Shown piece by piece: positions 400 through 64,000 of a stretch of 64,000 nt of DNA. Origin of the DNA: a virus (taxonomy: Duplodnaviria; Caudoviricetes); IMG/VR virus record IMGVR_UViG_2721755486_000003. One strand, written 5' to 3'. The notes beneath the pieces were generated by a model. The model was not told where the DNA came from. It saw nothing but the letters and a program-made list of their open reading frames with translations, and did not search any database. Each line of letters opens with the position of its first letter. The first letter of the stretch is position 1. The translations under genes and the position numbers were made by a program.

Positions 400-462
400 C
401 CTCAACCACTTGCGCCCTGCGCGGGCTGGCGGCCTCGCCTGGCCGACCAGCCCTTTTTTTTC
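400..462 (+). ncRNA. Candidate small RNA / intrinsic terminator
   Basis: GACAAT -10-like hexamer near 390, hairpin GGGCTGG-CGGCC..GGCCG-A-CCAGCCC followed by a T9 run. Confidence 0.4.
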
Positions 463-541
463 GCGCGCCGCATCGCCGCCAGCCAGCGCGGAATCCCACG
501 ATCCTCCGTCTGCCACAAAGCCTCGCACCGGGCCTCGACTA

Positions 542-2929: not shown

Positions 2930-2939
2930 TTTCAAGGGC

Positions 2940-2989
2940 AAAAAAAAGGCCCGCCTCGGCGGGGAGCGTCGACGGGCCGGAAGTGTAAG
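2940..2989 (-). ncRNA. Candidate sRNA, GCUCCCCGC-loop family copy A2
   Basis: TAGACT -10 (2996-3001, minus), stem GGCCCGTC/GGCGGGCC, T-run. Confidence 0.55.
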
Positions 2990-3082
2990 GGCCGCAGTCT
3001 ACGCGCCATCGCTGACGGATGGCTGACCGAGGAAGCGCGGGTTCCCACCGCTGTTCTCGCCAAGCCTGGCACCCAGGCTATA

Positions 3083-3098
3083 CTGTATATCCATACAG
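3083..3098. promoter_or_regulatory. LexA (SOS) box
   Basis: CTGTatatccatACAG overlapping a TATACT -10. Confidence 0.9.
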
Positions 3099-3118: not shown

Positions 3119-3436
3119 ATGGGCAATCCCAAGCTCCGCCCGGTCGACAAGTCCGACAGCGACTCGCGCGGCCCCACCATCAACCCGGCGAACGGCGTCC
3201 TGGCATACATCGCGGGCGACTACGTGCACCAGGCGCGGCAGACGCTCGGCCCCGCCGACAGCGACAGCCGCACGCATGCCGAGGTGGTCATCGAGGCCGG
3301 CAACTTCGGTACCGTCCGGATCTTCTTCGAGCGGAAGCTCTCCCGCCACCACAAGAGCTACTACCACTATTGGATGGCCTACCGAGCCGAGCCGGTCACC
3401 CCGGACACGGCGCACGCCGATGCCGACCACGCGTAG
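3119..3436 (+). CDS. SOS-regulated hypothetical protein
   Basis: First ORF after LexA box, host-like codon usage. Confidence 0.75.
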   Translation: MGNPKLRPVDKSDSDSRGPTINPANGVLAYIAGDYVHQARQTLGPADSDSRTHAEVVIEAGNFGTVRIFFERKLSRHHKSYYHYWMAYRAEPVTPDTAHADADHA

Positions 3437-3824
3437 CGGCCGGTCGCGCAGCTTCCCGCCGGCGCTGACCAAGGCCGAGTTGCGGGCGCTCTACGAGCGC
3501 TGCCCTACCCCCGAGGTCAAGCGCCTGCTGTGGGAGATCGCCCGGCTGCAGGCTCTCGCCCAGCGCGCCCAGGATTTGGCCGACATGCTGGCGCCGACTC
3601 AACTCGACCAGCTCCTGGTCGCCGAGATCCCGCTCGAGACCGCGATTGCGCCCTACCTGCATGCATTGCGGACCGCGCTCAAGCGGGAAGCCTGCGTCAT
3701 GGCAGGCAGGATCGATTACCCTGGCCCGGCCTCCGACTTCGGGCCGCAGCCGGAGCGCGCGATCTCCGCCGGCGAGGCCAGGCGCGAGGCCGAGCGGGAA
3801 GCCCGGCGCCTCCGCGGCGGGTAG
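3420..3824 (+). CDS. Hypothetical protein of the kind found upstream of phage SRAP genes
   Basis: LTKAELRALYERCPTPEVKRLLWEIARL motif; overlaps previous ORF. Confidence 0.75.
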   Translation: MPTTRSGRSRSFPPALTKAELRALYERCPTPEVKRLLWEIARLQALAQRAQDLADMLAPTQLDQLLVAEIPLETAIAPYLHALRTALKREACVMAGRIDYPGPASDFGPQPERAISAGEARREAEREARRLRGG

Positions 3825-3874
3825 GCTTGCATGCGCGGCCCAGGCGCTGCGCCAACGATCGGGAGGAATCGCCG

Positions 3875-4537
3875 ATGTGCACGAATTACGCCCCAGTGCA
3901 GGCCCAGCTGCTGCGCGACGTCTTCGGCGTCGAGCCGCCGGCGTCGGTCTGGAAGTCCGAGACCTGGCGCGACTACCCGGCCCCGATCATGCGCGCCGAC
4001 CAGGACGGCCGCCGCGACTGCGTGCTGGCCGGCTTCGGCATGATCCCGCGAGCCGAGATCAAGCGGCGCAATGCCGAGCAGGAAGAGCGCACCGGCGCGC
4101 CGCCGAAGCTGAAGGACTACGACACCATGAACGCCCGGGCCGAGACGCTCGGCTCGAAGGCGTCCTTCTCAGGCTCCTGGAAGAAGGGCCAGGTCTGCTT
4201 GGTGCCGATGACCGCCTTCTACGAACCGAACTACGAGCACGGGCCCAAGTCGGTGCGGTACCGGATCTGGATGAAGGACGAGCCGGCGTTCGGGGTAGCC
4301 GGACTTTGGAGGGATTGGCCGGATGGGGCCTTCACGTTCACCATGCTGACGGTGAACGCCGACCACCACCCGGTGATGAAGCGCATGCACGCGCCGGGGA
4401 AGGAGAAGCGAGGCATCGTGATCGTGCCGCGCGGGCATTGGGATGACTGGCTGACGTGTCGGGATCCGGAGGTGGCGCGGAGTTTCCTGCAACTAAGCCC
4501 ACCCGATTCCTTGGTGGCAGAGCCAGCAACGGCATAA
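3875..4537 (+). CDS. SOS response-associated peptidase (SRAP/YedK/HMCES family, abasic-site protection)
   Basis: N-terminal MC, NARAET, FYEP, AGLW, MH..KR motifs; GGGAGG RBS. Confidence 0.92.
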   Translation: MCTNYAPVQAQLLRDVFGVEPPASVWKSETWRDYPAPIMRADQDGRRDCVLAGFGMIPRAEIKRRNAEQEERTGAPPKLKDYDTMNARAETLGSKASFSGSWKKGQVCLVPMTAFYEPNYEHGPKSVRYRIWMKDEPAFGVAGLWRDWPDGAFTFTMLTVNADHHPVMKRMHAPGKEKRGIVIVPRGHWDDWLTCRDPEVARSFLQLSPPDSLVAEPATA

Positions 4538-4620
4538 CTAGGGTTAACACGTAACCCTTTGCGGCGGAAGGAAAGGACAACTACGGCGTTTAAACTCACG
4601 CGTCATCCGATACAGGGAAG

Positions 4621-5496
4621 GTGACGATGAAGAAGATCAAGATCCACTATTTTAAGGTGGAAAGTTATGGTGCCAAAACCGAGCCACTCGAGACGCTGCT
4701 CGGCAAACTAGCAGCTGTAGATATATCCGATCGCACGAAAAACTGTAACTACATAGACGTGCGACTGGATCATCTTACCCCGCCAACTGCTGATAAAGCC
4801 TATTGGCTGCTTCGGTTCTCTCGTTTCCGGAACGACAATTGGCCCGCAGTGGCCACCTTGGAAGAGGCCGCAAAAGATCTCGAGCTAGACGAGGATGAGA
4901 TCCTTTCGGAGGAAACCTCTATGCTGTATGCGCCAGCCTCTCAACGTGCAGTTATTCAGTACAACCATTTTGGTGTGCGAGCATCTAAAATTCAAGAATA
5001 TCTGCTGCAATCCGGTGCATACGGCGAAGGCGGCCATAGTCTCTTGCCGGTTCTGAGCAGCGACGCCCTCGACAAGTATGCGGACAAGAAGATCGTTACA
5101 GCTATCGATGTGGTGATCGACGACGTGTCGGCCACGGACATAGCCTACTTTGGAGGAAGCGGCCTCCAGGGGGCAATTAATCAAGCAGTGGATGGGACAG
5201 CACGACGAATGAGGGTTACATTTTCAGTCGATGCGCGTGAACGCAAGAATCAGTTGGACAAGGGAACTGTCCAAAAAATGGTAGATAAAGTACTTGGCCG
5301 CAATGGAGATAATGACAAGCTGGTTGTTTCGGCCAAGGCGGATGAAGACGATGCAGTCGAGGAACTGAACCTTCTAGAATCGAAGAAATGCGTGGAGTAT
5401 AATGCTGACAGTATTCCTCGCACCCAGGGCAGGCGCTATTCGCCGGACCACATGTTCGCCCTCCTGGAACAGGCTTATCGAGAATGGGAAAAGTAA
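4621..5496 (+). CDS. DUF6731-like soluble protein, candidate defence sensor
   Basis: AT-richer ORF; LELDEDEILSEETSMLY...VIQYNHFGVRASKIQEYL pattern recalled for DUF6731. Confidence 0.65.
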   Translation: MTMKKIKIHYFKVESYGAKTEPLETLLGKLAAVDISDRTKNCNYIDVRLDHLTPPTADKAYWLLRFSRFRNDNWPAVATLEEAAKDLELDEDEILSEETSMLYAPASQRAVIQYNHFGVRASKIQEYLLQSGAYGEGGHSLLPVLSSDALDKYADKKIVTAIDVVIDDVSATDIAYFGGSGLQGAINQAVDGTARRMRVTFSVDARERKNQLDKGTVQKMVDKVLGRNGDNDKLVVSAKADEDDAVEELNLLESKKCVEYNADSIPRTQGRRYSPDHMFALLEQAYREWEK

Positions 5497-5978
5497 GAAT
5501 CCCTGTCGCCCGCATTTGGGAGAAATCCTACCCGGCCGCCATTGCGACGGCGGCCGCGGTAACGGCATGGCATATGAACCTAGTCTTTGAAGACGCAAAG
5601 GTTACCAATCAACTGTCATCCACCATCAATGTATCAGCAATCTTGATGGGTTTCCTTGGCACCGCAAAGGCCATGCTATTATCATTTAATTCGAGACAGT
5701 ACCAGGCGATTCGCGCAAACAAGTATTTATGGGGCATGCTATTAAGCTACTTCAGTCAAGCAATGCTCGCCGCGCTATCACTTTGTATTTTCTCGCTAGT
5801 TCTTTTCTCGCTGGACCCGGGAAGATATAAAGGGTGGAATGTCGGACCGTATTGGGGTGTCGGCCCGATCCCTATCTCTCAAGTACTATTGCCCATGTGG
5901 GTTGGTCTCTCAGCATTCGCGTTCCTCGCATTTTTCCGAATCCTTCGCGTAATTTTTGGACTACTGAAGACATCATAG
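5484..5978 (+). CDS. Four-TM membrane protein, candidate defence effector
   Basis: About four hydrophobic segments, overlaps 3' end of previous gene, AT-richer. Confidence 0.7.
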   Translation: MGKVRIPVARIWEKSYPAAIATAAAVTAWHMNLVFEDAKVTNQLSSTINVSAILMGFLGTAKAMLLSFNSRQYQAIRANKYLWGMLLSYFSQAMLAALSLCIFSLVLFSLDPGRYKGWNVGPYWGVGPIPISQVLLPMWVGLSAFAFLAFFRILRVIFGLLKTS

Positions 5979-6135
5979 ATACGGACTTGGTGCGGAGAAG
6001 CATTTACCCTTAGATTTAGTCGCCCTCCATGCCGGCCAACTCCGGCGCCGCATCCCCTTCGGTGTCCCCTTCAGCTTCCGATCAGCGCTCGGTGTGGTCA
6101 TCAGGCACCTCCAAGTCTCTATAGGAGAAGGCAGA

Positions 6136-6291
6136 TGAACGGTCAGCATGTCAAGCCCGCTGTCGCATCGCAGCATCAGGGAATTTCCCGCATTCAAGCG
6201 ATCGTTTGACGCAAGCCAGAATTGCTCTGGGCTCGTTCGCAACGCCCGTCTTATTGGGCCCTCGGCTGAGCTAGCGAGGGCCCTCTTCTCT
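6136..6291 (+). repeat. 156-bp non-coding element repeated at 61997-62152 (promoter + double-hairpin sRNA 6229-6291)
   Basis: 141/156 identical by hand alignment, no gaps; GGGAATTTCCC palindrome, TTCAAG-N18-CAGAAT, two hairpins. Confidence 0.75.
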
Positions 6292-6400
6292 TCGTCGCCG
6301 ATAAGCGGCGCGCGCAATTGCTCAACATGCCACACGGATCGCACTGACGTGCCCCATTTGAGGCAAGCCGGCGGCCGCCATACACCGTAGACTCAGTCTT

Positions 6401-6455
6401 GGGGTGCAATGCATCCCGTTCCCTTTTGAGCCCCAGACATCAGTTGGGGCTTTTT
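6401..6455 (+). ncRNA. Candidate double-hairpin sRNA
   Basis: TAGACT at 6388-6393; GGGGTGC-AAT-GCATCCC, pyrimidine linker, AGCCCCA/TGGGGCT + T-run. Confidence 0.5.
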
Positions 6456-6701
6456 CTTTGCACATCACCAGAGCGGCCACACCGGCACTGTCTTCCAGTG
6501 CCGCGCTGCACTGTCGCTCAGCGCACCGAGCAACTATCCCATCATCCACGCCTGCCGAGCCGAATAGCAGCCTAGCACTGTCGCCGCAGTTCCCGAACCA
6601 CCAGAATCTTTACCCTTCCTTCTGGTGCCCCATACGCCTAGGGGGATGAAAAACCATATCCAAGGTATGGAAAATCATCTCAGCAACTCGACCACCATCT
6701 T

Positions 6702-6749
6702 GTTGCATTCTCAAGGGCATAGGAGCTCCCCGCACCTATGCCCTTTTTT
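6702..6749 (+). ncRNA. Candidate sRNA, GCUCCCCGC-loop family copy A4
   Basis: GTTGCATTCTC leader, stem AAGGGCATAGG/CCTATGCCCTT, loop AGCTCCCCGCA, T-run. Confidence 0.55.
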
Positions 6750-6956
6750 CTTTCCGCAGCCACCACGCAGGCACACCGCCCACAAGATCGGCCGCCAGCG
6801 TAAGGCATTATCTATACCCCACTCTTGTATGCACCAGACTTGTGCGGGGTAACGAATTTGTCACACTAGAGCAGAATGCGCCTAGGCAGCGACATCCGAC
6901 CCGCTGCCACTCCCAGAGGGCAAAGGCGCTACCCGCGCCTTTGCCCCATTTTTCGG

Positions 6957-7349
6957 CTAACCGCCGGTCGGCGCCTGTGAGGTGGCTGGTTCCCAGTGCG
7001 ACCCGCCACCCAACCGCACACCCCAGAACATCAGCCACCGGCGCCACACCGGCACGCCAGTGACCGCCGAAGCCTCGCGCAGCACGGCATCCGCCACCGC
7101 GCGCGGTACCGGGTGCTCGGTGTACAGGAAGTCGTGCACCACGGCGGCTTCGTTGGACGTGCCGCCGGCCAGAAGGTAGACCACCGGCAGCCGCGGCACC
7201 GATGCCAGGTCGGTTTCGAACCCGGCCGGAACTTCGAAGGTCTGCCCGGCCATGTCCGACTGGTAGACCAGCGGCTCGACCAGCCGCCACAGGCCGTCAT
7301 CCTGGTCCGTGGCGTTCTCCATGACCAGCCTGGTCAGGAACTGGCTCAC
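6957..7349 (-). CDS. DUF1353 domain protein
   Basis: VPAGFETDLASVPR...AAVVHDFLY...AD motif; GTG start overlaps upstream stop. Confidence 0.88.
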   Translation of the reverse strand: MSQFLTRLVMENATDQDDGLWRLVEPLVYQSDMAGQTFEVPAGFETDLASVPRLPVVYLLAGGTSNEAAVVHDFLYTEHPVPRAVADAVLREASAVTGVPVWRRWLMFWGVRLGGGSHWEPATSQAPTGG

Positions 7350-7822
7350 GACGTCGCCCCGGCAACCGCCGCCGCGGGCGCGGCCGGCGCGCTGGCCGGC
7401 GCCAGGGTCGAGCTCGGCGCCGGCGCCCCATACTGCGCCAGTGCGGCAGCCAGGGCCACCTGGAATGCCATCAGCCCGATCTGCACGCCGCTGCGCGCGG
7501 CTGGGTCGAGCGGCAGCAGGCCCACCACCTGGATGGCGGCCGGCACCGACGTGTTCACCAGCGATTGCACGCTCGAGGCGTCGACCGACGCGCCGGCGGC
7601 ACACACGGCGCCATTGTCCTTCACCAGCTGCGCCAGGATGACCTGCTTGGCCGGGTCGTCGACCGTCATGGCCTGGACCGACTGCAGGGTCGGCTGCACG
7701 ACCGCGCAGGCCTTCACGACCTGGGCCTGGAAGGTGGTGGCGGCCTGGGGCGCGCCGGCGCAGCCGGCCAGGGAGACGAGCGCGACGATTCCTGCCGCGC
7801 ACAACAGCATCAGCTTCTTCAT
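7346..7822 (-). CDS. Lipoprotein with C-terminal hydrophobic helix (possible unimolecular spanin)
   Basis: MKK + hydrophobic core + LAGC lipobox; GVQIGLMAFQVALAAALA near C-terminus. Confidence 0.7.
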   Translation of the reverse strand: MKKLMLLCAAGIVALVSLAGCAGAPQAATTFQAQVVKACAVVQPTLQSVQAMTVDDPAKQVILAQLVKDNGAVCAAGASVDASSVQSLVNTSVPAAIQVVGLLPLDPAARSGVQIGLMAFQVALAAALAQYGAPAPSSTLAPASAPAAPAAAVAGATS

Positions 7823-8570: not shown

Positions 8571-8631
8571 AGGCCCTCCAGAAATGCAAAGGCCCCGCAC
8601 ACGGCGGGGCCTGGGGTGCAGGTGGTGCAGG

Positions 8632-10137
8632 TCAGACGGCAGGCGGCGAGATCACCCGGAACGCCAACTGGGCGATGTCCACCGAGATTGGCTGCGTGTT
8701 GCCGCCGGCGCTCGAGGCGCCGATCAGGACCGACACGTTGGCCGCGCCAGCCGGCACGAGCAGGCGCTCGCAGATGATCCCGCTCTCGGACGCGCCGGTA
8801 TTCGTCTGGCGCAGGTAGGCCGTGCTGATGGTCTGGCTCCAGCTGGCGTTCTGCCACGCCACACCCAGCATCTGGCCGAACGGCCCCGTGATGGCGTCCG
8901 CCGTGCCCCAGGTCACCGCCGGCGTGCTCGCGCGCAGGCGGCAGCTCACCTCGATCACACTGCCGGCCACGACGCCGCCGAACGCCAGCGACGACGCGCC
9001 GACCGCCCCGGCGTTCGCCGGGCGCGTGAAGCGTTGCCAATTGCCCAGGCACTGGCCATCGTTGACAAGCAGGCCCGTCACGCCGCTGGCCAACTGCACG
9101 CCATCGGCCACCGACGTGCTGCCACTTCCCGAGTTGAACAGGCCGTTCTGCAGCAGATTGGCCGGGTCGGAGTTGTAGGTGACCAGCCAGGGCGGCGTGT
9201 CCTTCTTCGCCGCGGCGTTGAACTTCGGATCGGCCAGCACGTACGCCGCCAGCGCGCCGCTGCCGAGTACCGTCGGGTGCGTCCCGTCGAAGGTGTACGC
9301 CGCCTTCAGAAATGCCGGGTTGTTCGGATCTTGGAAAGCCGCATTGCAGTCGACCAGCGGGAAGCCGTACTGCGCCTGCATCTGGTAGACCAGCGCGTTC
9401 CAGGCATTGATGCCGGTCTGGCTGCCCGGCACGTTGCCGCGCGGCGGGATGGTCCACAGGATCGGCTGGATGCCGGCGGCAATCAGCTGGCGGATCATGG
9501 TCGTCACGGCCGCGAAGCCGCTGGCGATCTCCGCCGACGAGTTGTAGTTGTTCGAGCCGCATGCGATGACGCACGACTTGGGCAGCGGGTTCATCGCCAG
9601 CACCTGCGGCAGTTGCGACGCCAGCGCTTGTTCCGCGGTCGAGCCGGACACGGCGAAGTCGGCGCCGTAGCGGTAGCGGTAAGTCTGCCCGCTCAGATAG
9701 CACAGGTCGCGCAGCCAGTTCGTCAGGCCCGAGTAGGCGATCGCCGAGATGCTGTCGCCGACGCCGACGATGCCGACCTTCTGGCCGGCAAAGGTCAGTG
9801 GCGCCATCACAACGGCTTCTGCGGCTGCGGCTGCTGATGCGGCCGTGGAAGCCGTCGCGGCAGCAGCCGTCGCCGCCGAGGCAGCAGACACTGCCTCCGC
9901 AACCGCCTCCTGCGCCGCCGGGCTCAACTCGGCCCCGGCCACGAAGAGGTTCCATTGCATCGGCGTGATGTCCGGCTGGGCGCCGACGCTCGCAGTCAGA
10001 GCGGTATAGGCCGAGCCGTTGTAGGTCACGCAGTCGTTGATGGCATAGGCTACGGTCGACGACCAGGTGCCGCGCAGATTGATGCCAGCGCCCGGCTCGC
10101 CTTGCGGGCCAGGCGTGCTTGCCAGAATTACGGTCAT
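8632..10137 (-). CDS. SGNH/GDSL esterase with N-terminal virion-attachment-like and C-terminal CBM-like regions
   Basis: GDSIS, AVSG, GSNN, DGTHP blocks; GPQGEPG start, Ala-rich linker. Confidence 0.85.
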   Translation of the reverse strand: MTVILASTPGPQGEPGAGINLRGTWSSTVAYAINDCVTYNGSAYTALTASVGAQPDITPMQWNLFVAGAELSPAAQEAVAEAVSAASAATAAAATASTAASAAAAAEAVVMAPLTFAGQKVGIVGVGDSISAIAYSGLTNWLRDLCYLSGQTYRYRYGADFAVSGSTAEQALASQLPQVLAMNPLPKSCVIACGSNNYNSSAEIASGFAAVTTMIRQLIAAGIQPILWTIPPRGNVPGSQTGINAWNALVYQMQAQYGFPLVDCNAAFQDPNNPAFLKAAYTFDGTHPTVLGSGALAAYVLADPKFNAAAKKDTPPWLVTYNSDPANLLQNGLFNSGSGSTSVADGVQLASGVTGLLVNDGQCLGNWQRFTRPANAGAVGASSLAFGGVVAGSVIEVSCRLRASTPAVTWGTADAITGPFGQMLGVAWQNASWSQTISTAYLRQTNTGASESGIICERLLVPAGAANVSVLIGASSAGGNTQPISVDIAQLAFRVISPPAV

Positions 10138-10539: not shown

Positions 10540-10610
10540 AGGGGTCCAGGATGAAGAGAGCCCCGCGCGCGGCGGGGCCTGGGGTGTGGAGGGGGCAGAT
10601 GGGAGAGGCC

Positions 10611-16315: not shown

Positions 16316-16455
16316 GGGGATCTCCCTGTCGAGCCCTGGGAATGGGTGGCTGCGGCAGCACGTCCAGGGAAACGTGTGTTCGGCCCGTCGGCCTATCCGC
16401 AGCACAAAAGCAAAGGCCCCGCACAAGGCGGGGCCCGAGAGGACGGCAGCGTTGG

Positions 16456-17202
16456 TCAGTTCACGTTGCCGGAGTTGCCGGTGCCAGGCTGCACGCCGTT
16501 GTGCGTGTGCGTGTCGTCGACACGCTTGCCGTTGGCGGTGATCTGGCCGATCACATTCAGCACGCCGTTGAAGACCGCCGCGGCACCGCTCACCGCACTG
16601 CCGACCATGCCGCCGATGAACGTCAGCAGCCCGGTGATCGTCACGCCGTTCGAGAAGGTAGCCAGCGGCGTGACCACGTCGAAGCCGCCCGGCGCCACGA
16701 TCTTGACCTTCTGGCTGGTCGGGTTCAGGTCGATGAAGGTCGCGCCGTCGTTGCTGCGCAGCTGCGTGCTGACGGTGCTGATGCCGCTGATCTTGGTGGC
16801 CTGGGAGAAGAATCCGACGAAGGCGAAGCCGTCGCTCAGGTCGTGCACCCGCGGCTCGATCGGCGGCTGCACACCGCCCGACTGCCACCAGGCGTCAATG
16901 CAGCGCGCGGCGAAGACCACCAGGCACTCGTCGCCGTTGGCAACCGGGAAGGTCAGCGTGCAGCCACCGCCTCGCGGGAAGTGCACCGGCACGTCGACCA
17001 GCAGCGGGAGGTTGACAAACTGCGCGGTACCGTCCGGCGCATGCACGATGCCCTTGATCGCGAGCTGCACGGTCGCGGTGACGGCGCCGTCGCTGAATGA
17101 CTGGATGATGCCGGGCATGGCGGTCCAGATGCCGGTCTGCAGGCCATCCAGCGCCACGCGCAAGGCTTCCTCGGGGTCGTCCCAACGTTCTCGGCTATCC
17201 AC
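16456..17202 (-). CDS. Baseplate spike (Gp138-like)
   Basis: VPVHFPRGGG..LTFPV..GDECLVVF, HDLSD, C-terminal HTH iron-binding motif. Confidence 0.9.
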   Translation of the reverse strand: MDSRERWDDPEEALRVALDGLQTGIWTAMPGIIQSFSDGAVTATVQLAIKGIVHAPDGTAQFVNLPLLVDVPVHFPRGGGCTLTFPVANGDECLVVFAARCIDAWWQSGGVQPPIEPRVHDLSDGFAFVGFFSQATKISGISTVSTQLRSNDGATFIDLNPTSQKVKIVAPGGFDVVTPLATFSNGVTITGLLTFIGGMVGSAVSGAAAVFNGVLNVIGQITANGKRVDDTHTHNGVQPGTGNSGNVN

Positions 17203-59313: not shown

Positions 59314-59609
59314 CCGAAGCAGCAGCACAAGTGATCGAAACGACCCGGAAGGCCTGGGAGATGCAGATGGACAACCGACTGATGAGCGAGCAAGACCTGC
59401 GTGACGTAACCGGCCTGCGCCGGCACAAGCTGCAAGCGGCATGGCTTCAACGCCACTTCGGCCTGACGCCTGTCCAGCGCGCCGACGGCAGGATCATCCT
59501 GACCTGGGCAGCCTTCGAGGCCCTGCAGGCCAAGCGCGCCGGCGTGCTACCGGGCGCTGCTCAACCGGACAACCGCCCGGCCCTCGTGCCCCTGCGGAGG
59601 GCCGCGTGA
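59310..59609 (+). CDS. Excisionase-like protein (DUF4224-like)
   Basis: LRDVTG.....Q..WL...G.....RADGR, directly before int. Confidence 0.75.
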   Translation: MTEAAAQVIETTRKAWEMQMDNRLMSEQDLRDVTGLRRHKLQAAWLQRHFGLTPVQRADGRIILTWAAFEALQAKRAGVLPGAAQPDNRPALVPLRRAA

Positions 59610-60724
59610 ACGCCCGCCGCAGAACCAAGGCAGACGGCCTGCCGAGTCGGGTCTATGTGCGGCGCAACAGCTTCTTCTGGGTACGACCAACGGACGAGAA
59701 GTGGCTGAAGCTGTGCCGCGTGGCCGAGGGCGAGACGCTGATGTATGAGCGCCTGGCCGCCGAGAAGCGGAAGGTGGAAGTGGACGGCGACGAAGGCAGC
59801 ATGTCCCGCCTCGTCGCCATCTACATGGACAAATTCGAGGGGCAGTACTCGGACACCTTCCGCGATGAGTGGAAGCGCCGCGGCGAGGATGTACGGAAGG
59901 CATTCAAGCACCACAGCGTCGAGCAGGTGGACTCCGGCCTGATTGAGGACTTCCTGCTACAGAACTGGGCCGACAAGCTGCCGACGCAGCGTGCGATGAA
60001 AGGCTGGCTGTCCAAGTTCTTCGCCTGGGCCGTCCGGCGCCGCCACGCGCAGGTCAATCCCTGCCGCGAGGTCGAGGTCAAGAAGCCGACTGTGCGCGAC
60101 GTCTACATCCCGCACGACCACTTCATGGCGATCCGCGCCGCGCTGGCCAGCTACAGCTACGAGAAGAAGATTAAGGGGAAGCTCCAGGTCATCACCGCCA
60201 AGGTCCCGACCGGGCCGGAAATGCAGATCTTCGTCGACCTGTGCTACCTGACCTGCCAGCGCTCGACCGAGATTCGGCTGCTGCGTTGGTCGCAAGTGGA
60301 TGAGCGCGCCGGCGTGATCCGGTTCAAGCCGACCAAGACGGAGAACAGCAGCGGTCAGGCGGTGGACTGGCCGATCACCCCCGAGATTGCCGCCGTCCTC
60401 CGGCGCGCGCGCGCACTGAGGCGGGAACTGACGGTCCAGCCGCTGCACGACTACGTCATCACGGATCGGAGGGGAAAGCCGAAGACCGCAGCGGCCTGCC
60501 GCGATGCCTGGCGAGACGGACTGGTCCGCTCGAAGCTGGAGAAGATGGACTACGTGGTGAAAGACATTCGCGCGAAGGCGCTCACCGATGCGTATCGGTC
60601 CGGCCACGGCATCGATGAGCTGCAGGTCGCCGGCGCCCATGCGGATCGGGCCACAACGGAGGACTACATCAAGCAGCGCGACGTGCCTGTTTCAGTCGTG
60701 CGCCTGCGTCTCCCTGCCGCGTAA
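59606..60724 (+). CDS. int: Tyrosine recombinase (integrase)
   Basis: TCQRSTE (R), KT, KDIRAKA, AH, TEDY (Y); adjacent to att. Confidence 0.93.
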   Translation: MNARRRTKADGLPSRVYVRRNSFFWVRPTDEKWLKLCRVAEGETLMYERLAAEKRKVEVDGDEGSMSRLVAIYMDKFEGQYSDTFRDEWKRRGEDVRKAFKHHSVEQVDSGLIEDFLLQNWADKLPTQRAMKGWLSKFFAWAVRRRHAQVNPCREVEVKKPTVRDVYIPHDHFMAIRAALASYSYEKKIKGKLQVITAKVPTGPEMQIFVDLCYLTCQRSTEIRLLRWSQVDERAGVIRFKPTKTENSSGQAVDWPITPEIAAVLRRARALRRELTVQPLHDYVITDRRGKPKTAAACRDAWRDGLVRSKLEKMDYVVKDIRAKALTDAYRSGHGIDELQVAGAHADRATTEDYIKQRDVPVSVVRLRLPAA

Positions 60725-60745: not shown

Positions 60746-60776
60746 CAGCATCTTTTGCGGACGGCAGAAAAGACGA

Positions 60777-60808
60777 AGGCCTCTGTAATCGATTGATTAC
60801 AGAGGCCT
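60777..60808. terminator. Hairpin next to tRNA 3' end containing an IHF consensus
   Basis: AGGCCTCTGTAATC-GATT-GATTACAGAGGCCT; TAATCGATTGATT at 60786-60798. Confidence 0.6.
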
Positions 60809-60809
60809 C

Positions 60810-60858
<49 letters not shown>

Positions 60859-60995
60859 ATACATATGTAAGTGATATAAATCAATCACTTACGCAGATTC
60901 CTCTAACTTGCTGCGTAAAATTTAGGCACGGCGGCATGCGGGATCCCGGGCGATTCGGAGTGCATCTTAGACAGCATTTCGGGCCCTATGAAGGG

Positions 60996-61043
60996 AAAAG
61001 CGGCCCGCCTCGGCGGGGAGCGTTGACGGGCCAGAAGTCCAGC
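60996..61043 (-). ncRNA. Candidate sRNA, GCUCCCCGC-loop family copy A3
   Basis: TAGACT -10 (61050-61055, minus), stem GGCCCGTC/GGCGGGCC, weaker T-run. Confidence 0.5.
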
Positions 61044-61136
61044 GGCGCGAGTCTACGCGGCATGGCTGACGAGCGCCTGACCGAGAAAGCGCGAGTTCCC
61101 ACCGCTGTTCTCGCCAAGCTTGGCGCCTACGTTATA

Positions 61137-61152
61137 CTGTATATTCATACAG
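61137..61152. promoter_or_regulatory. LexA (SOS) box
   Basis: CTGTatattcatACAG overlapping TATACT. Confidence 0.9.
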
Positions 61153-61170
61153 CATTCAGAATGCCCAACC

Positions 61171-61461
61171 ATGCTGCCATTAGCCGCTATCGAGTCTGCC
61201 ATCCAGGATGCTCTCCCGCCTATCATCGCCCGTCACCGCTCAGCCGGGCACCTGACCTGGAAACTGCTTCACCAGATCGAGGACGAGGTTATGTCGGAGG
61301 TGTCCGCAACCGGGAAAGTGGCGCCGATGATGCTTGCTGTGCTGAAGTCGTCGCCCTTCATGTCATTCCCACGGAATGACAGCGTGGCAGACCTAAGCAA
61401 GCACGATGTCCTGCCGATCGCCTTCGCCCTGACCGCACAGGCATGGAACAAGCTCCATTGA
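61171..61461 (+). CDS. SOS-regulated protein, DUF2471-like
   Basis: IIARHR..G.LTWKLLHQIEDEV (family recalled). Confidence 0.7.
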   Translation: MLPLAAIESAIQDALPPIIARHRSAGHLTWKLLHQIEDEVMSEVSATGKVAPMMLAVLKSSPFMSFPRNDSVADLSKHDVLPIAFALTAQAWNKLH

Positions 61462-61471
61462 GGTGCCGGCC

Positions 61472-61732
61472 ATGCCCGCCTTCCTCGCCACATCCATCTT
61501 CCTCGAAGCCGACTACCTGCCAGGTGACCGGGAGGAGATCCGGCTGCCCTGCTCCACCGTCGTGGTCCATAACGGCGCCGTGAGCGTGCGCGGCATTGAG
61601 ACGCGCCACCTAGAAAGGCTCGGCTGGACGCCGGACGCGCTGTCCTTCGAAGTCGCCGGCGAGCATCACCGCTATCGCGTTGCCGCGCCATCGCTAGGCG
61701 GCGCGCTCACGGCCAAGTTCCCGATCAGGTAG
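61472..61732 (+). CDS. Hypothetical protein
   Basis: GAGG RBS, host-like codons. Confidence 0.7.
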   Translation: MPAFLATSIFLEADYLPGDREEIRLPCSTVVVHNGAVSVRGIETRHLERLGWTPDALSFEVAGEHHRYRVAAPSLGGALTAKFPIR

Positions 61733-61779
61733 AACCCCGTGCGTCGTTCTAGAATGGTTGCAAGTATGGGGGGATCAAC

Positions 61780-61989
61780 ATGGAAGACTCCGAGGAATGG
61801 AGGCGCCGGGTCGTCGCTGGAGGTCAGACTTTCTGCCCGGCATGCCAGTCAACTGACGTCACCATGGGCGCTTGCGCAATTGGCGCCCTGACAGTTCACC
61901 AAGAATATACCTGCGAGGACTGTCAGCATGAATTCACGGCCCTCTTTGTCCTGGTCAGCTGCTATGCGGGCCATGAGACGGATAGCTAA
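61780..61989 (+). CDS. Small zinc-ribbon protein
   Basis: CPAC...CEDC; TAGAAT and GGGGGA upstream. Confidence 0.65.
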   Translation: MEDSEEWRRRVVAGGQTFCPACQSTDVTMGACAIGALTVHQEYTCEDCQHEFTALFVLVSCYAGHETDS

Positions 61990-61996
61990 CGGCCGG

Positions 61997-62152
61997 TGAA
62001 CGGCCCATATGTCAAGCCCGCTGTCGCATGGCCGCATCAGGGAATTTCCCGCATTCAAGCGACCGCTTGGCGCAAGCAAGAATTCCCCAGGGCTCGTTCG
62101 CAACGCCCGTCTTATTGGGCCCTCGGCTGAGCCAGCGAGGGCCCTTTTCTCT
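61997..62152 (+). repeat. Second copy of the 156-bp element (double-hairpin sRNA 62090-62152)
   Basis: 141/156 identical to 6136-6291. Confidence 0.75.
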
Positions 62153-62263
62153 CCTGCGGTCACTGGAAACAATGACCCGATGCGGATACGGCGACTACGA
62201 ATAATCCGCAGCATCACCCGTTCAAGGGTCGAATTGCGTGCGGTCGCCACGTAAAGTTGAACG

Positions 62264-62323
62264 CGGTCGCGCCCGGGGGTGCGACCGTCTTTTTTGCCCT
62301 CCGGCAGGTGGAGGGCATTTTTT
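62264..62323 (+). ncRNA. Candidate double-hairpin sRNA
   Basis: TAAAGT 62252-62257; CGGTCGC/GCGACCG, U-rich linker, TGCCCTCC/GGAGGGCA + T-run. Confidence 0.5.
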
Positions 62324-62446
62324 CGTTGCCGCACGCACGTTATGTCCGCGCGTATAGACGCGCCGGCTCCCCCCCCAAGCGCAGACCTATGACACACCAC
62401 TCGTTAGTAGGGGGTATTTGTGAAAAATCTGTATTTATCCTGCCAT

Positions 62447-62510
62447 CGGATCTTCGAACCAGGATCCGCGTTCGTTGCGCCCCGGCTTCCCGGCAGGGGC
62501 GCTTTTTTTT
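62447..62510 (+). ncRNA. Candidate double-hairpin sRNA
   Basis: TATCCT 62436-62441; CGGATC/GATCCG, linker, GCGCCCC/GGGGCGC + T8. Confidence 0.5.
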
Positions 62511-62576
62511 GAGTAACTGGCCGTCGGTCGCGAAGAGGCGTGGGCGGCGACGAGACTTTCTAGCAGAATCCGGCTG

Positions 62577-62638
62577 CGCGCGCCTCCCTGGGCGCGCGAT
62601 CCCTAACTTGGGCCCGCCATCGAGCGGGCTTTTTTTTT
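62577..62638 (+). ncRNA. Candidate double-hairpin sRNA with CUCCC loop
   Basis: CAGAAT 62564-62569; CGCGCGCC/GGCGCGCG, linker ATCCCTAACTT, GCCCGC/GCGGGC + T9. Confidence 0.55.
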
Positions 62639-62801
62639 AGCCTCTCCCAAGACGAAATCCGGCCTACCTGGCACGACTTCCAGGCATCACCGCTTACCAC
62701 GTTCAGATTGTCAGACTCACGATCAAGGCTCCCGCCCGATGCAGGGTAGCGACGTCCGTGCGCCGCACCAAAAATGCCGCCTGGCAGCGCACATTGACCC
62801 C

Positions 62802-62851
62802 GTTGCCATTCCTGGGCGCATAGGGGCTCCCCGCACCTATGCGCTCTTTTT
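62802..62851 (+). ncRNA. Candidate sRNA, GCUCCCCGC-loop family copy A5
   Basis: GTTGCCATTCC leader, stem GCGCATAGG/CCTATGCGC, T-run. Confidence 0.55.
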
Positions 62852-62920
62852 CCCAATGCCCATCGTTCGCCACCGTTAGCGCCATAGGCTCGCTCGGAGG
62901 CCGGCGCCGGGTCCAGTCCT

Positions 62921-62971
62921 CAGTGCGTCCTCCCATCCATCCGCACGCCACAGAACATCAGCCACCGGCGC
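62921..62971 (-). pseudogene. 3' remnant of a DUF1353 gene
   Basis: 44/51 identical to 6994-7044; RRWLMFCGVRMDGRTH vs RRWLMFWGVRLGGGSH. Confidence 0.75.
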
Positions 62972-63215
62972 TTGACCACGCGTCCACTGTCTTGCGGTGC
63001 CGCGCAGCGCAGTCGCCCAGCGCGCCCAGCACGGGCCCCATCACCCACGCCTGCCAAGCGTCGTAGTCGCCAGCTGCCGGCGCATCCGGCACCTCGCACG
63101 GCGCCGCCAGCGCGCTATCGAGCGGCGGCGGCTTGCTTGGCTGCGTCGACGGCGTTGGAGAGCATGCGCACCCGGCCAGCATCAGGCCGGCAGTCAGCAG
63201 GCAAAGGCTTCGCAT
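62958..63215 (-). CDS. o-spanin (Rz1-like lipoprotein)
   Basis: LAGC lipobox, Pro-rich, C...C..RH; overlaps i-spanin. Confidence 0.8.
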   Translation of the reverse strand: MRSLCLLTAGLMLAGCACSPTPSTQPSKPPPLDSALAAPCEVPDAPAAGDYDAWQAWVMGPVLGALGDCAARHRKTVDAWSSAGG

Positions 63216-63489
63216 TCTTCAGCTCCTTCTGGATGGCGTCGAGCCGGGTGCTCAGCGTCGACTGAATAGCGCGGTACTCGTCGGCCCGCGCGCGGATGCC
63301 AGCGCCGGCGGCGCGCAGCTCGCCCAGCGCCTGGTTTGCGGTCGCCACGTCAGCCTGGGCGCGCGCCGCAGTCAGTTCGGCCAGCTCGGCGTCCTTTCGC
63401 CAGCCATTGGTGACCCAGCCGGCTGCGAACAGAGCGCCGGCCAGCACCGCGGCGCCGGCAGAGCGCCCGTTCAAGGGAACGTCGATCAC
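63115..63489 (-). CDS. i-spanin (Rz-like)
   Basis: N-terminal TM, GW...GWR, coiled coil, C-terminal Cys. Confidence 0.8.
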   Translation of the reverse strand: MIDVPLNGRSAGAAVLAGALFAAGWVTNGWRKDAELAELTAARAQADVATANQALGELRAAGAGIRARADEYRAIQSTLSTRLDAIQKELKNAKPLPADCRPDAGRVRMLSNAVDAAKQAAAAR

Positions 63490-63959
63490 AGCGCTCGCCT
63501 CCCCTCGCAGTACTCGCGCGCCAGGGCGCGACGGTTGACCAGGCCACGCACAGGCTTGCCGTTGACGTTGACCCACAGCGCCAAGGCCGCGCACGCGCCG
63601 TCCATATCGCCGGCGTTCGCCCTCCGGGTCATACTGCTGCCGCAGAAAGCTGCCACGCCGATGTTGTAAGCCGTGTCGACGAAGGCCACCTTCTGGCCAT
63701 CCGTCAGCGGCACGCGCACGCAGGCCATGACACCCTCCGCATGCCGTGCCAGATCCTTGTCGAGCTGGGCCCGGCACTCGGCCGGCGTGTAGGTCTTTCC
63801 CCACTGCGCGTTCTCGGTGGCGCCGTCGCAGTAGGTCAGCACGCCCCCGATGTCGCGGTAGGTCTTGTAGACGGTGCCCTCGTTCTTGGGCACCAGCACC
63901 AGCAACGCAGCCGCCGCCGCAGCGCCGACCACGCCGACCAGCTTGGGATTGAGCGCCAT
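63486..63959 (-). CDS. Lysozyme (GH24), SAR-type endolysin
   Basis: Ala-rich N-terminal anchor, EG....YRD..G..T.C.G.T, YNIG, GLVNRR. Confidence 0.92.
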   Translation of the reverse strand: MALNPKLVGVVGAAAAAALLVLVPKNEGTVYKTYRDIGGVLTYCDGATENAQWGKTYTPAECRAQLDKDLARHAEGVMACVRVPLTDGQKVAFVDTAYNIGVAAFCGSSMTRRANAGDMDGACAALALWVNVNGKPVRGLVNRRALAREYCEGRRAL

Positions 63960-64000
63960 GTCACTCCTCCCGCTGCCGCACGCGCCGCCACGGTCGGATG

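Follow-up and report, generated by a model that had tools for sequence, protein, structure and literature searches.

What role do the short hairpin units have that lie between the accessory operon and the lysis genes of a Cupriavidus prophage? The stretch analyzed here (the window) comprises 64,000 nucleotides (nt) of the IMG/VR virus record IMGVR_UViG_2721755486_000003 and corresponds to G000:C1:3005291-3069290, within a 7.95-Mb genome of three replicons. It contains two prophages, A and B. In prophage B, the region 61990-62957 holds five units on the plus strand (array B), and the equivalent slot of prophage A, at 6130-6956, holds a related set (array A). The initial annotation interpreted array B as a variable cassette of small-RNA (sRNA) genes. 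Our results make a strong case, from sequence comparison, that the last unit is a member of a real, uncatalogued, Cupriavidus-wide family of two-hairpin structured RNAs, which we refer to as R1. A moderate case can be made that unit 4 is a second unit type with a chromosomal sibling, while what supports units 2 and 3 and the middle unit of array A is their anatomy.

Unit 5 and the R1 RNA family

The two prophages carry three R1 copies:

62770..62854, plus strand: unit 5 of array B, with the -10-like hexamer AAAAAT, a first hairpin, the linker AUUCCU and a terminator hairpin with the loop GCUCCCCGC
6670..6753, plus strand: R1 copy 1 of array A, with the -10-like hexamer GAAAAT; 72.7 bits against the R1 model (6675-6753)
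6872..6956, plus strand: R1 copy 2 of array A, with the -10-like hexamer CAGAAT; 83.9 bits (6878-6956); in tandem with copy 1 and adjoining the end of the DUF1353 gene

Searches of the own genome with BLAST and nhmmer found copies of unit 5 at 6706-6749, 6909-6952, C1:1265790-1265870 (minus strand) and C2:2294117-2294193. When their flanks are included, all five copies adopt the same fold, in which a 5' hairpin is joined by a short linker (AUUCCU or ACUCCC, for example) to a terminator hairpin with the loop GCUCCCCGC; 5 of the 18 base pairs keep their pairing through two-sided changes. A covariance model, R1, was built from these five own-genome copies, and unit 5 (62776-62854), which like the other phage units was in the seed, scores 84.7 bits. 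The initial annotation had recognized this unit but drawn it too short (62802-62851), overlooking the first hairpin; its extent is about 62776-62854.

The R1 model gives 12 matches in the own genome. Of the 77 other Cupriavidus species, 58 have full-length matches (E <= 1e-3), and 140 genomes from 28 further genera of the family have none at E <= 1e-4. By these counts R1 picks out relatives and not GC-rich terminators in general. No match was found among 96 unrelated phage or genome loci at E <= 0.1; these were 14 endolysin-linked genome loci, 80 IMG/VR loci, one DUF2471-linked IMG/VR locus and 20 kb beyond the window. Rfam returned no match for the phage R1 copies (E <= 10 for array B, E <= 1 for array A) or for R1 members at ten other loci (E <= 1).

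The initial annotation had proposed covariation as a check on the conservation of the units, and the last unit shows it. In a model-fitted alignment of 42 R1 matches, 95.3% of cells pair, as against 74.8% in shuffled alignments and 32-58% with slid partners, and two-sided changes occur at 16 of the 18 base pairs. The apex of the terminator loop reads CCC in all 42 sequences, the linker contains YCCY in 32 of 42 and the first loop contains CCC in 16 of 42; the invariant feature of R1 is the C-run of the terminator loop, usually accompanied by a UCCY linker. Most copies stand alone: by a crude call of open reading frames (ORFs), 34 of 42 are orphans, and a same-strand ORF ends within 60 nt of only 1 of the 42. 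The copies fall into three types by context and upstream sequence:

R1 core type: a single copy per genome in many species, flanked by a chemotaxis receptor gene and hfq2-fliC, with TTTACA-N17-TATATT directly upstream
R1 second type: beside EAL and HD-GYP genes and, in genome G063, flanking a polysaccharide cluster; AGCAGGGTAA ... CAATAAT upstream
R1 phage type: the prophage copies, with GGGTAAC-N17-NANAAT upstream, preceded by a TTACCCC...GGGGTAA inverted repeat

The polysaccharide cluster, of the GDP-mannose type (G063:C2:1264735-1292972), is flanked by R1 on both sides. At the core locus of the own genome (L032, G000:C2:2798361-2801438), a second Hfq gene precedes flagellin.

Several further observations touch on R1. 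A small island on chromosome 2 (3500-6575 of locus L022, G000:C2:2292500-2295575) follows a tRNA-like 3' end and is bounded by a CTGCTTTCCGCCA repeat; the gene upstream of it is presumably selA, judging from its first residues alone. The island contains a gene with a LexA box, whose product begins MGNPKLR like that of window positions 3119-3436, directly followed by an R1 copy, and it may represent a minimal form of the slot. Elsewhere on chromosome 1, a C4 antisense RNA (2123-2329 of locus L033, G000:C1, ~1.279 Mb) scores 56.3 bits, above threshold, and its a1/b1 target region scores 43.9 bits, below the gathering score of 46.7; the two lie near a weak R1 match. They point to another prophage, with P1/P7-type immunity, near C1:1.265-1.28 Mb, a region that also holds one phage-type R1 copy. 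The word GCUCCCCGC of the R1 terminator loop recurs in a 73-nt minus-strand element on the attachment-site (att) side, present at 2933-3005, 60987-61059 and 1640-1712 in copies that are 84% alike. This element has a TAGACT hexamer and a hairpin with a T-run, and no minus-strand gene lies upstream of it. It matches MmgR weakly (21.2 bits) and folds no better than shuffled sequences.

Anatomy and turnover of the two arrays

The other units of array B are as follows:

61991..62152, plus strand: block D1, non-coding, common to prophage A (6130-6291), 89.5% identical over 162 nt
3' part of D1, plus strand: unit 1, with the -10-like hexamer AAGAAT at 62078-62083
62252..62323, plus strand: unit 2, with the -10-like hexamer TAAAGT and two GC hairpins, six T after each; singleton; fold z-score -4.3
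62436..62510, plus strand: unit 3, with the -10-like hexamer TATCCT, a hairpin, and a terminator hairpin with apex GGCUUCCCGGCA and eight T; singleton
62564..62640, plus strand: unit 4, with the -10-like hexamer CAGAAT, a hairpin with CCUCCCU and the linker AUCCCUAACUU

The claim that this gap has no credible ORF holds for 61990-62957. GC content is flat over the three codon positions of the array-B ORFs (0.59-0.71), while in the flanking genes GC at third positions is 0.80-0.88, and none of the five array-B ORFs scanned has a Pfam match. Five hairpin units on the plus strand had been proposed, and our folds agree with them, with z-scores against shuffled sequences of -1.6, -4.3, -2.0, -3.1 and -3.2 for units 1 to 5. 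Between 61500 and 63300 we count 6 terminator-like sites, as compared with 1.4 +/- 1.2 in shuffles. Four of those in array B are on the plus strand (two in unit 2, one each in units 3 and 4) and two, both weak, are on the minus strand; the loop and T-run limits of the scan exclude units 1 and 5. Array A has 3 such sites, as compared with 0.8 +/- 0.9 in shuffles. Every unit was said to end in a pyrimidine run or T-run. A GC hairpin with a T-run is indeed the rule, and it is weak in unit 1, which has 4 T in B and none in A.

A -10-like hexamer was also claimed for each unit. Defined as A at position 2, T at position 6 and at least 4 of 6 positions matching, it precedes 5 of 5 units of array B, ending 5-7 nt before the first hairpin. 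The same spacing is seen for 4 of 4 units of array A, and thus for 9 of 9 in both arrays. The plus strand has eight such hexamers within the 968 nt, or about 0.008 per nt in the region, compared with a genome-wide rate of 0.0029 per position; the hexamer is the most conspicuous regularity of the stretch.

Unit 4 has a paralogue in an intergenic region of the chromosome (G000:C1:2812885-2812950) with 86% column identity. Its terminator consists of GCCCGC-CAUCGA-GCGGGC followed by nine T, and the paralogue keeps the CCUCCC loop, the AUCCC linker and the terminator including its loop, which supports part of the sRNA interpretation. We tried to place unit 4 in known families. Over its full length it scores 33.2 bits (E 1.1e-4) against RF00519 (suhB/MmgR), below the gathering score of 41, and we regard this as a resemblance only. 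Membership in anti-hemB / Burkholderia RNA 7 (RF02837) was likewise rejected, with 29.7 bits against a gathering score of 49.5. The kinship with betaproteobacterial toxic sRNAs that had been suggested for the array finds no backing: RF02278 matches unit 4 alone, with 18.4 bits against a gathering score of 50 (E 0.9), and gives no match on the remaining units at E <= 10 (array B) or E <= 1 (array A).

A model of unit 4 and its paralogue (R2, two sequences) matched 36 of 77 species, and within these matches two groups, of about a dozen loci, share a GCCCGC-CAUCGW-GCGGGC terminator and a C-rich linker. R3, a model of the better of these two groups, has its best match in the own genome at E 0.19. 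The array A middle unit had been considered a relative of R3; R3 gives no match there, and this claim was dropped. A separate candidate sRNA is found at locus L148 and six orthologous loci (e.g. G030:C1:227002-227063) in 7 species, with 93% column identity. It has a CAGAAT -10 hexamer, two hairpins and a UUUCCCGCA linker, followed by the words CCAGAAT-TGGGG and, about 110 nt on, a second terminator. L148 may be a chromosomal tandem of two RNA genes.

Unit 1 folds into a weak hairpin and then a 9-bp GC hairpin followed by UUUUCUCU. D1 as a whole reads as non-coding: by manual count, most of the 15 differences between A and B fall at first or second codon positions of the sole shared ORF frame. 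An ORF of 30 amino acids (aa), 62420-62512, overlaps unit 3. When the whole 971-nt stretch was compared with the genus, only terminator matches of 26-27 nt in 2 of 77 species were found, and at the DNA level the only matches in phage records came from Bordetella phages and fell in the spanin gene.

The corresponding features of array A, together with a further unit at the left end of the window, are:

6130..6291, plus strand: copy of D1 and unit 1, with the -10-like hexamer CAGAAT at 6217-6222; no T-run after the hairpin
6388..6455, plus strand: middle unit, with the -10-like hexamer TAGACT, a hairpin, the linker GUUCCCUUUUGA and a terminator hairpin with UUUUUCUUU; singleton; fold z-score -2.9
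6486..6560, no strand assigned: remnant of a spanin-gene 3' part, matching 62985-63059 within the spanin gene of prophage B (80% identity, 75 nt)
400..470, plus strand: further hairpin with eight T, fold z-score -2.4, left of the LexA box at 542-557 in a gap between divergent ORFs

The last of these bears out the earlier mention of a unit near 400; nhmmer found no paralogue of it in the own genome.

The picture of a variable cassette built of modules, on the other strand from the late and lysis genes, fits what we see: units are gained and lost between A, B and their relatives. Our alignment agrees that arrays A and B have a common first unit (6130-6291 against 61991-62152, 89.5% identity) and a common last unit, and differ in the middle. 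The five units of array B are mutually unlike by nhmmer, and adjacent homologues occur only in prophage A, as its two R1 copies. The shared D1 ends at 62152 in the A/B comparison, and a soil-metagenome contig (X2) matching 61572-62151 diverges at the same point. Contigs of a relative (X1) cover 60900-61726 and 62998-63966 with different sequence between. The array is uncovered in X1 and, beyond 62151, in X2, and we do not take lack of cover as absence. One contig joins 61733 directly to 62942, a weak observation from a single contig with 30 letters on its shorter side. In the related prophage end of C. necator A5-1, the slot holds a DNA ligase gene and other genes and no array. Since relatives without the array exist, we regard it as variable cargo.

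Small RNAs as probable cargo and the alternative readings

We then propose that the slot is a cargo ('moron') site filled with stand-alone sRNA genes in place of protein genes, a model we consider reasonably probable. At least one unit belongs to a genus-wide RNA family, and thus these phages probably carry regulatory RNAs, not proteins, as cargo here. In this model, the -10 element, one or two hairpins and intrinsic terminator of each unit would yield a predicted RNA of ~65-80 nt, made in the lysogen from the unit's own promoter. The RNAs would act in trans, their unpaired C-rich stretches pairing with G-rich ribosome-binding regions of host or phage mRNAs, a mode comparable to that of RsaE/RoxS, LhrC or MmgR-type RNAs. 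As a secondary role, the unit terminators may form a barrier against plus-strand transcription entering the lysis genes. The sequences show the folds, their conservation and covariation, the orphan placement and the turnover of modules, whereas transcription, action in trans and the targets are inferred.

Several results weigh against this model. A search for RNA sequencing runs that cover 60900-64000 came back empty. A promoter scan found no full -35/-10 promoter in either array, and no recognizable -35 is present at any unit of either. Complements of the loop motif are not enriched at ribosome-binding positions (9 of 141 occurrences; shuffled words gave from 12 of 126 to 89 of 767). The T-run of unit 1 is deficient, most of all in A, and the consensus fold of D1 has no compensatory change in the A/B comparison. 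Units 2 and 3 and the array A middle unit have no relatives in the own genome (nhmmer), in 77 other species or in phage records, and because relatives are absent wherever sought, these three are inseparable from plain terminators. For unit 4, most R2 matches are ordinary terminators by eye, and R3 scores only 14.3 bits on it (E 0.099). We therefore regard unit 4 as probably an sRNA, with a single clear sibling. Even for R1, the covariation counts depend on the model's own fit, and the search of the 28 other genera used a stricter cut-off, which only 4 of 10 genomes of the same genus passed. As to targets, a naive scan for exact seed complements gave no coherent gene set, and RNAduplex of the core R1 RNA against neighboring leaders gave uninformative whole-length duplexes.

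The main alternative is that the hairpins are intrinsic terminators and nothing else, either leftovers of gene turnover or a multiple barrier between the SOS-induced operon and the lysis operon, with no functional RNA. The units are all plus-strand terminators between convergent operons, in a mosaic slot that has a gene remnant and that in relatives holds other cargo; full promoters are lacking, as are relatives of units 2 and 3. Terminators account for units 1-3 as well as the sRNA model does. This account fits unit 4 poorly and unit 5 not at all. The R1 loop and linker are kept across 58 species while the stems co-vary, the copies are mostly orphans (34/42), and the core copies have a good promoter directly upstream. 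The loops of unit 4 are kept in a chromosomal copy of different context, a -10-like hexamer stands at a fixed 5-7 nt before every unit, and five or six consecutive terminators exceed, in our judgement, any need for insulation. We therefore hold a terminators-only explanation for the array to be rather unlikely.

A role in cis is quite improbable. Plus-strand RNAs, or their transcription, could pair or collide with late transcripts that read through the array in antisense, and so time lysis or stabilize the 3' end of the late mRNA; in both prophages the units and the lysis genes converge, no good terminator follows the spanin gene, and the array offers only two weak minus-strand terminator-like sites. 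However, R1 occurs at many chromosomal sites without a convergent phage operon (hfq2-fliC, EAL/HD-GYP, the polysaccharide cluster), and phage relatives manage without an array. The units might also encode very small proteins, for example through the 30-aa ORF at 62420-62512, where GGGGG lies 5 nt ahead of the GTG start. This ORF crosses both hairpins and stops inside the T-run, its DNA has no relatives in the own genome (nhmmer), codon-position GC is flat in the array ORFs, and the D1 differences fall mostly at first or second positions of the shared frame; we consider very small proteins highly improbable.

Within the sRNA cargo model, it is tempting to speculate that the prophage copies mimic a family of regulatory RNAs of the host, because chromosomal R1 members adjoin movement and surface genes, among them those of the cyclic-di-GMP enzymes EAL and HD-GYP. 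The phage copies have the same C-rich loop as the chromosomal members and their own promoter type. We rate this idea as unlikely. If it were true, the phage of a lysogen would tap host motility and envelope control through RNA alone, receptors could be hidden from other phages or host lifestyle altered, and the slot would be an exchange site in which host-captured RNA genes are shuffled among phages.

Prophage setting and relation to known systems

The slot lies in two tandem prophages of myovirus type, whose main features are:

~2.76-60.8 kb: prophage A, with late genes (tail sheath, major head protein, large terminase) on the minus strand and early genes on the plus strand
59441-60724: integrase of prophage A
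from ~60.86 kb past the end of the window: prophage B
61137..61989, plus strand: SOS-box accessory operon of prophage B, with a LexA box at 61137-61152 and then three genes
ending at 61461, plus strand: DUF2471 gene of this operon (Pfam)
61463-61732, plus strand: 89-aa gene of this operon
61780-61989, plus strand: 69-aa zinc-ribbon gene of this operon (Pfam zinc ribbon)
62958..63959, minus strand: convergent end of the prophage B lysis cassette
62958-63215, minus strand: o-spanin-like lipoprotein (PHROGs Rz-like spanin)
63486-63959, minus strand: endolysin (PHROGs endolysin; Pfam Phage_lysozyme)
6957-7400, minus strand: DUF1353 gene of prophage A

A 90-nt repeat that includes a tRNA 3' part lies at 2711-2800 and again at 60769-60858, and no whole tRNA is present in the 64-kb window; A and B are integrated in tandem at one tRNA attachment site. 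The junction between them carries one integrase only. The nearest named relative of the phage endolysin is from Cupriavidus necator. In both prophages the integrase-distal end has the order att, plus-strand accessory operon with a LexA box, short plus-strand units and the 3' end of minus-strand genes, namely spanin and endolysin in B and the DUF1353 gene in A. LexA boxes lie at 3083-3098 (A) and 61137-61152 (B), with a third at 542-557, and the pattern CTGT-N8-ACAG has 5 matches in the window against 0.59 expected. A third element seems to have left its remains at positions 1-2700, where a LexA box (542-557) and another copy of the att-side unit are present.

The accessory genes differ between the prophages: A has an SRAP (SOS response associated peptidase) gene and a low-GC DUF6731 pair, and B has the DUF2471, 89-aa and zinc-ribbon genes. 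In A, the SRAP gene (3875-4537) stands ahead of the low-GC pair (4621-5978), which encodes a DUF6731 protein of 291 aa and a 164-aa protein that looks membrane-bound by sequence; the pair may be a defence or exclusion module. Elsewhere in prophage A, an int-alpA RNA (16334-16403, minus strand, 53.6 bits) is the sole Rfam match of the window at gathering threshold, and three copies of a 57-nt hairpin repeat are scattered among the tail genes (8579-8635, 10547-10603 and 16403-16459).

Cupriavidus is used in work on bioplastics and metal resistance. To our knowledge, its small RNAs are barely charted, and prophage regulatory RNAs have been well studied in enteric bacteria only. The R1 family, with its clear covariation, is ready for an Rfam entry and for target prediction, and its occurrence on the chromosome and in prophages suggests that members move between host and phage. 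Should the phage copies affect motility or envelope genes, they would offer a simple, testable route from lysogeny to changed host behavior. A Cupriavidus transcriptome study lists 35 unnamed sRNA candidates (PMC7563307). Our literature search, which covered neither subscription journals nor supplements, found no description of the R1 family or of sRNA arrays in Burkholderiales prophages.

Prophage-borne sRNAs and tandem sRNA genes, each taken separately, are already in print. New here are an uncatalogued Cupriavidus-wide RNA family with chromosomal and phage members, and the combination of unlike RNA units stacked in one cargo slot in Burkholderiales. AgvB and AsxR of enterohaemorrhagic E. 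coli are prophage-encoded base-pairing sRNAs. The prophage sRNAs PasA-D of pathogenic E. coli are described as strain-variable accessory cargo spread by repeated acquisition, with a single gene in most prophage regions and copies that are not in tandem (10.64898/2026.05.13.724894). The Pas RNAs and the RNAs predicted here are both small, end in a 3' terminator hairpin and belong to the accessory cargo of lysogenic phages; they differ in that ours come from other bacteria, are unrelated in sequence and are stacked as four to five unlike units per slot. Tandem sibling sRNAs such as PrrF1/PrrF2, OmrA/OmrB, AbcR1/AbcR2 and the csRNAs are homologues arranged head to tail with their own terminators (PMC4211561). 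The R1 pair of prophage A (6670-6753 and 6872-6956) is of this kind. In contrast, theirs are chromosomal duplicates of one family, array B consists of unlike units, and R1 has both chromosomal and phage-borne members.

In their C-rich motifs, the units recall further RNAs. RsaE/RoxS and LhrC1-5 are C-rich anti-Shine-Dalgarno sRNAs, and R1 is like them in presenting several unpaired C-rich motifs, in the hairpin loop, the linker and the terminator loop. It has no sequence relation to them, and a naive scan of ribosome-binding sites gives no enrichment for R1. Unit 4 spans the suhB/MmgR model (alpha-r8, RF00519) with its first hairpin, UCCCU-A-ACUU linker and terminator, but stays below the gathering score of a family described from alphaproteobacteria. 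With RF02278 the array units have in common that they are short double-hairpin RNAs with pyrimidine-rich stretches in Burkholderiales; the match is sub-threshold and on unit 4 only. In organization, the array has a parallel in phage morons, accessory transcription units between conserved phage genes. Like morons, the units are self-contained, occupy a hypervariable slot by the lysis genes and att, and have breakpoints right after terminators; unlike morons, the payload of the array is predicted to be RNA and not a protein gene. A slot of several unlike RNA units would extend the moron idea from proteins to RNAs.

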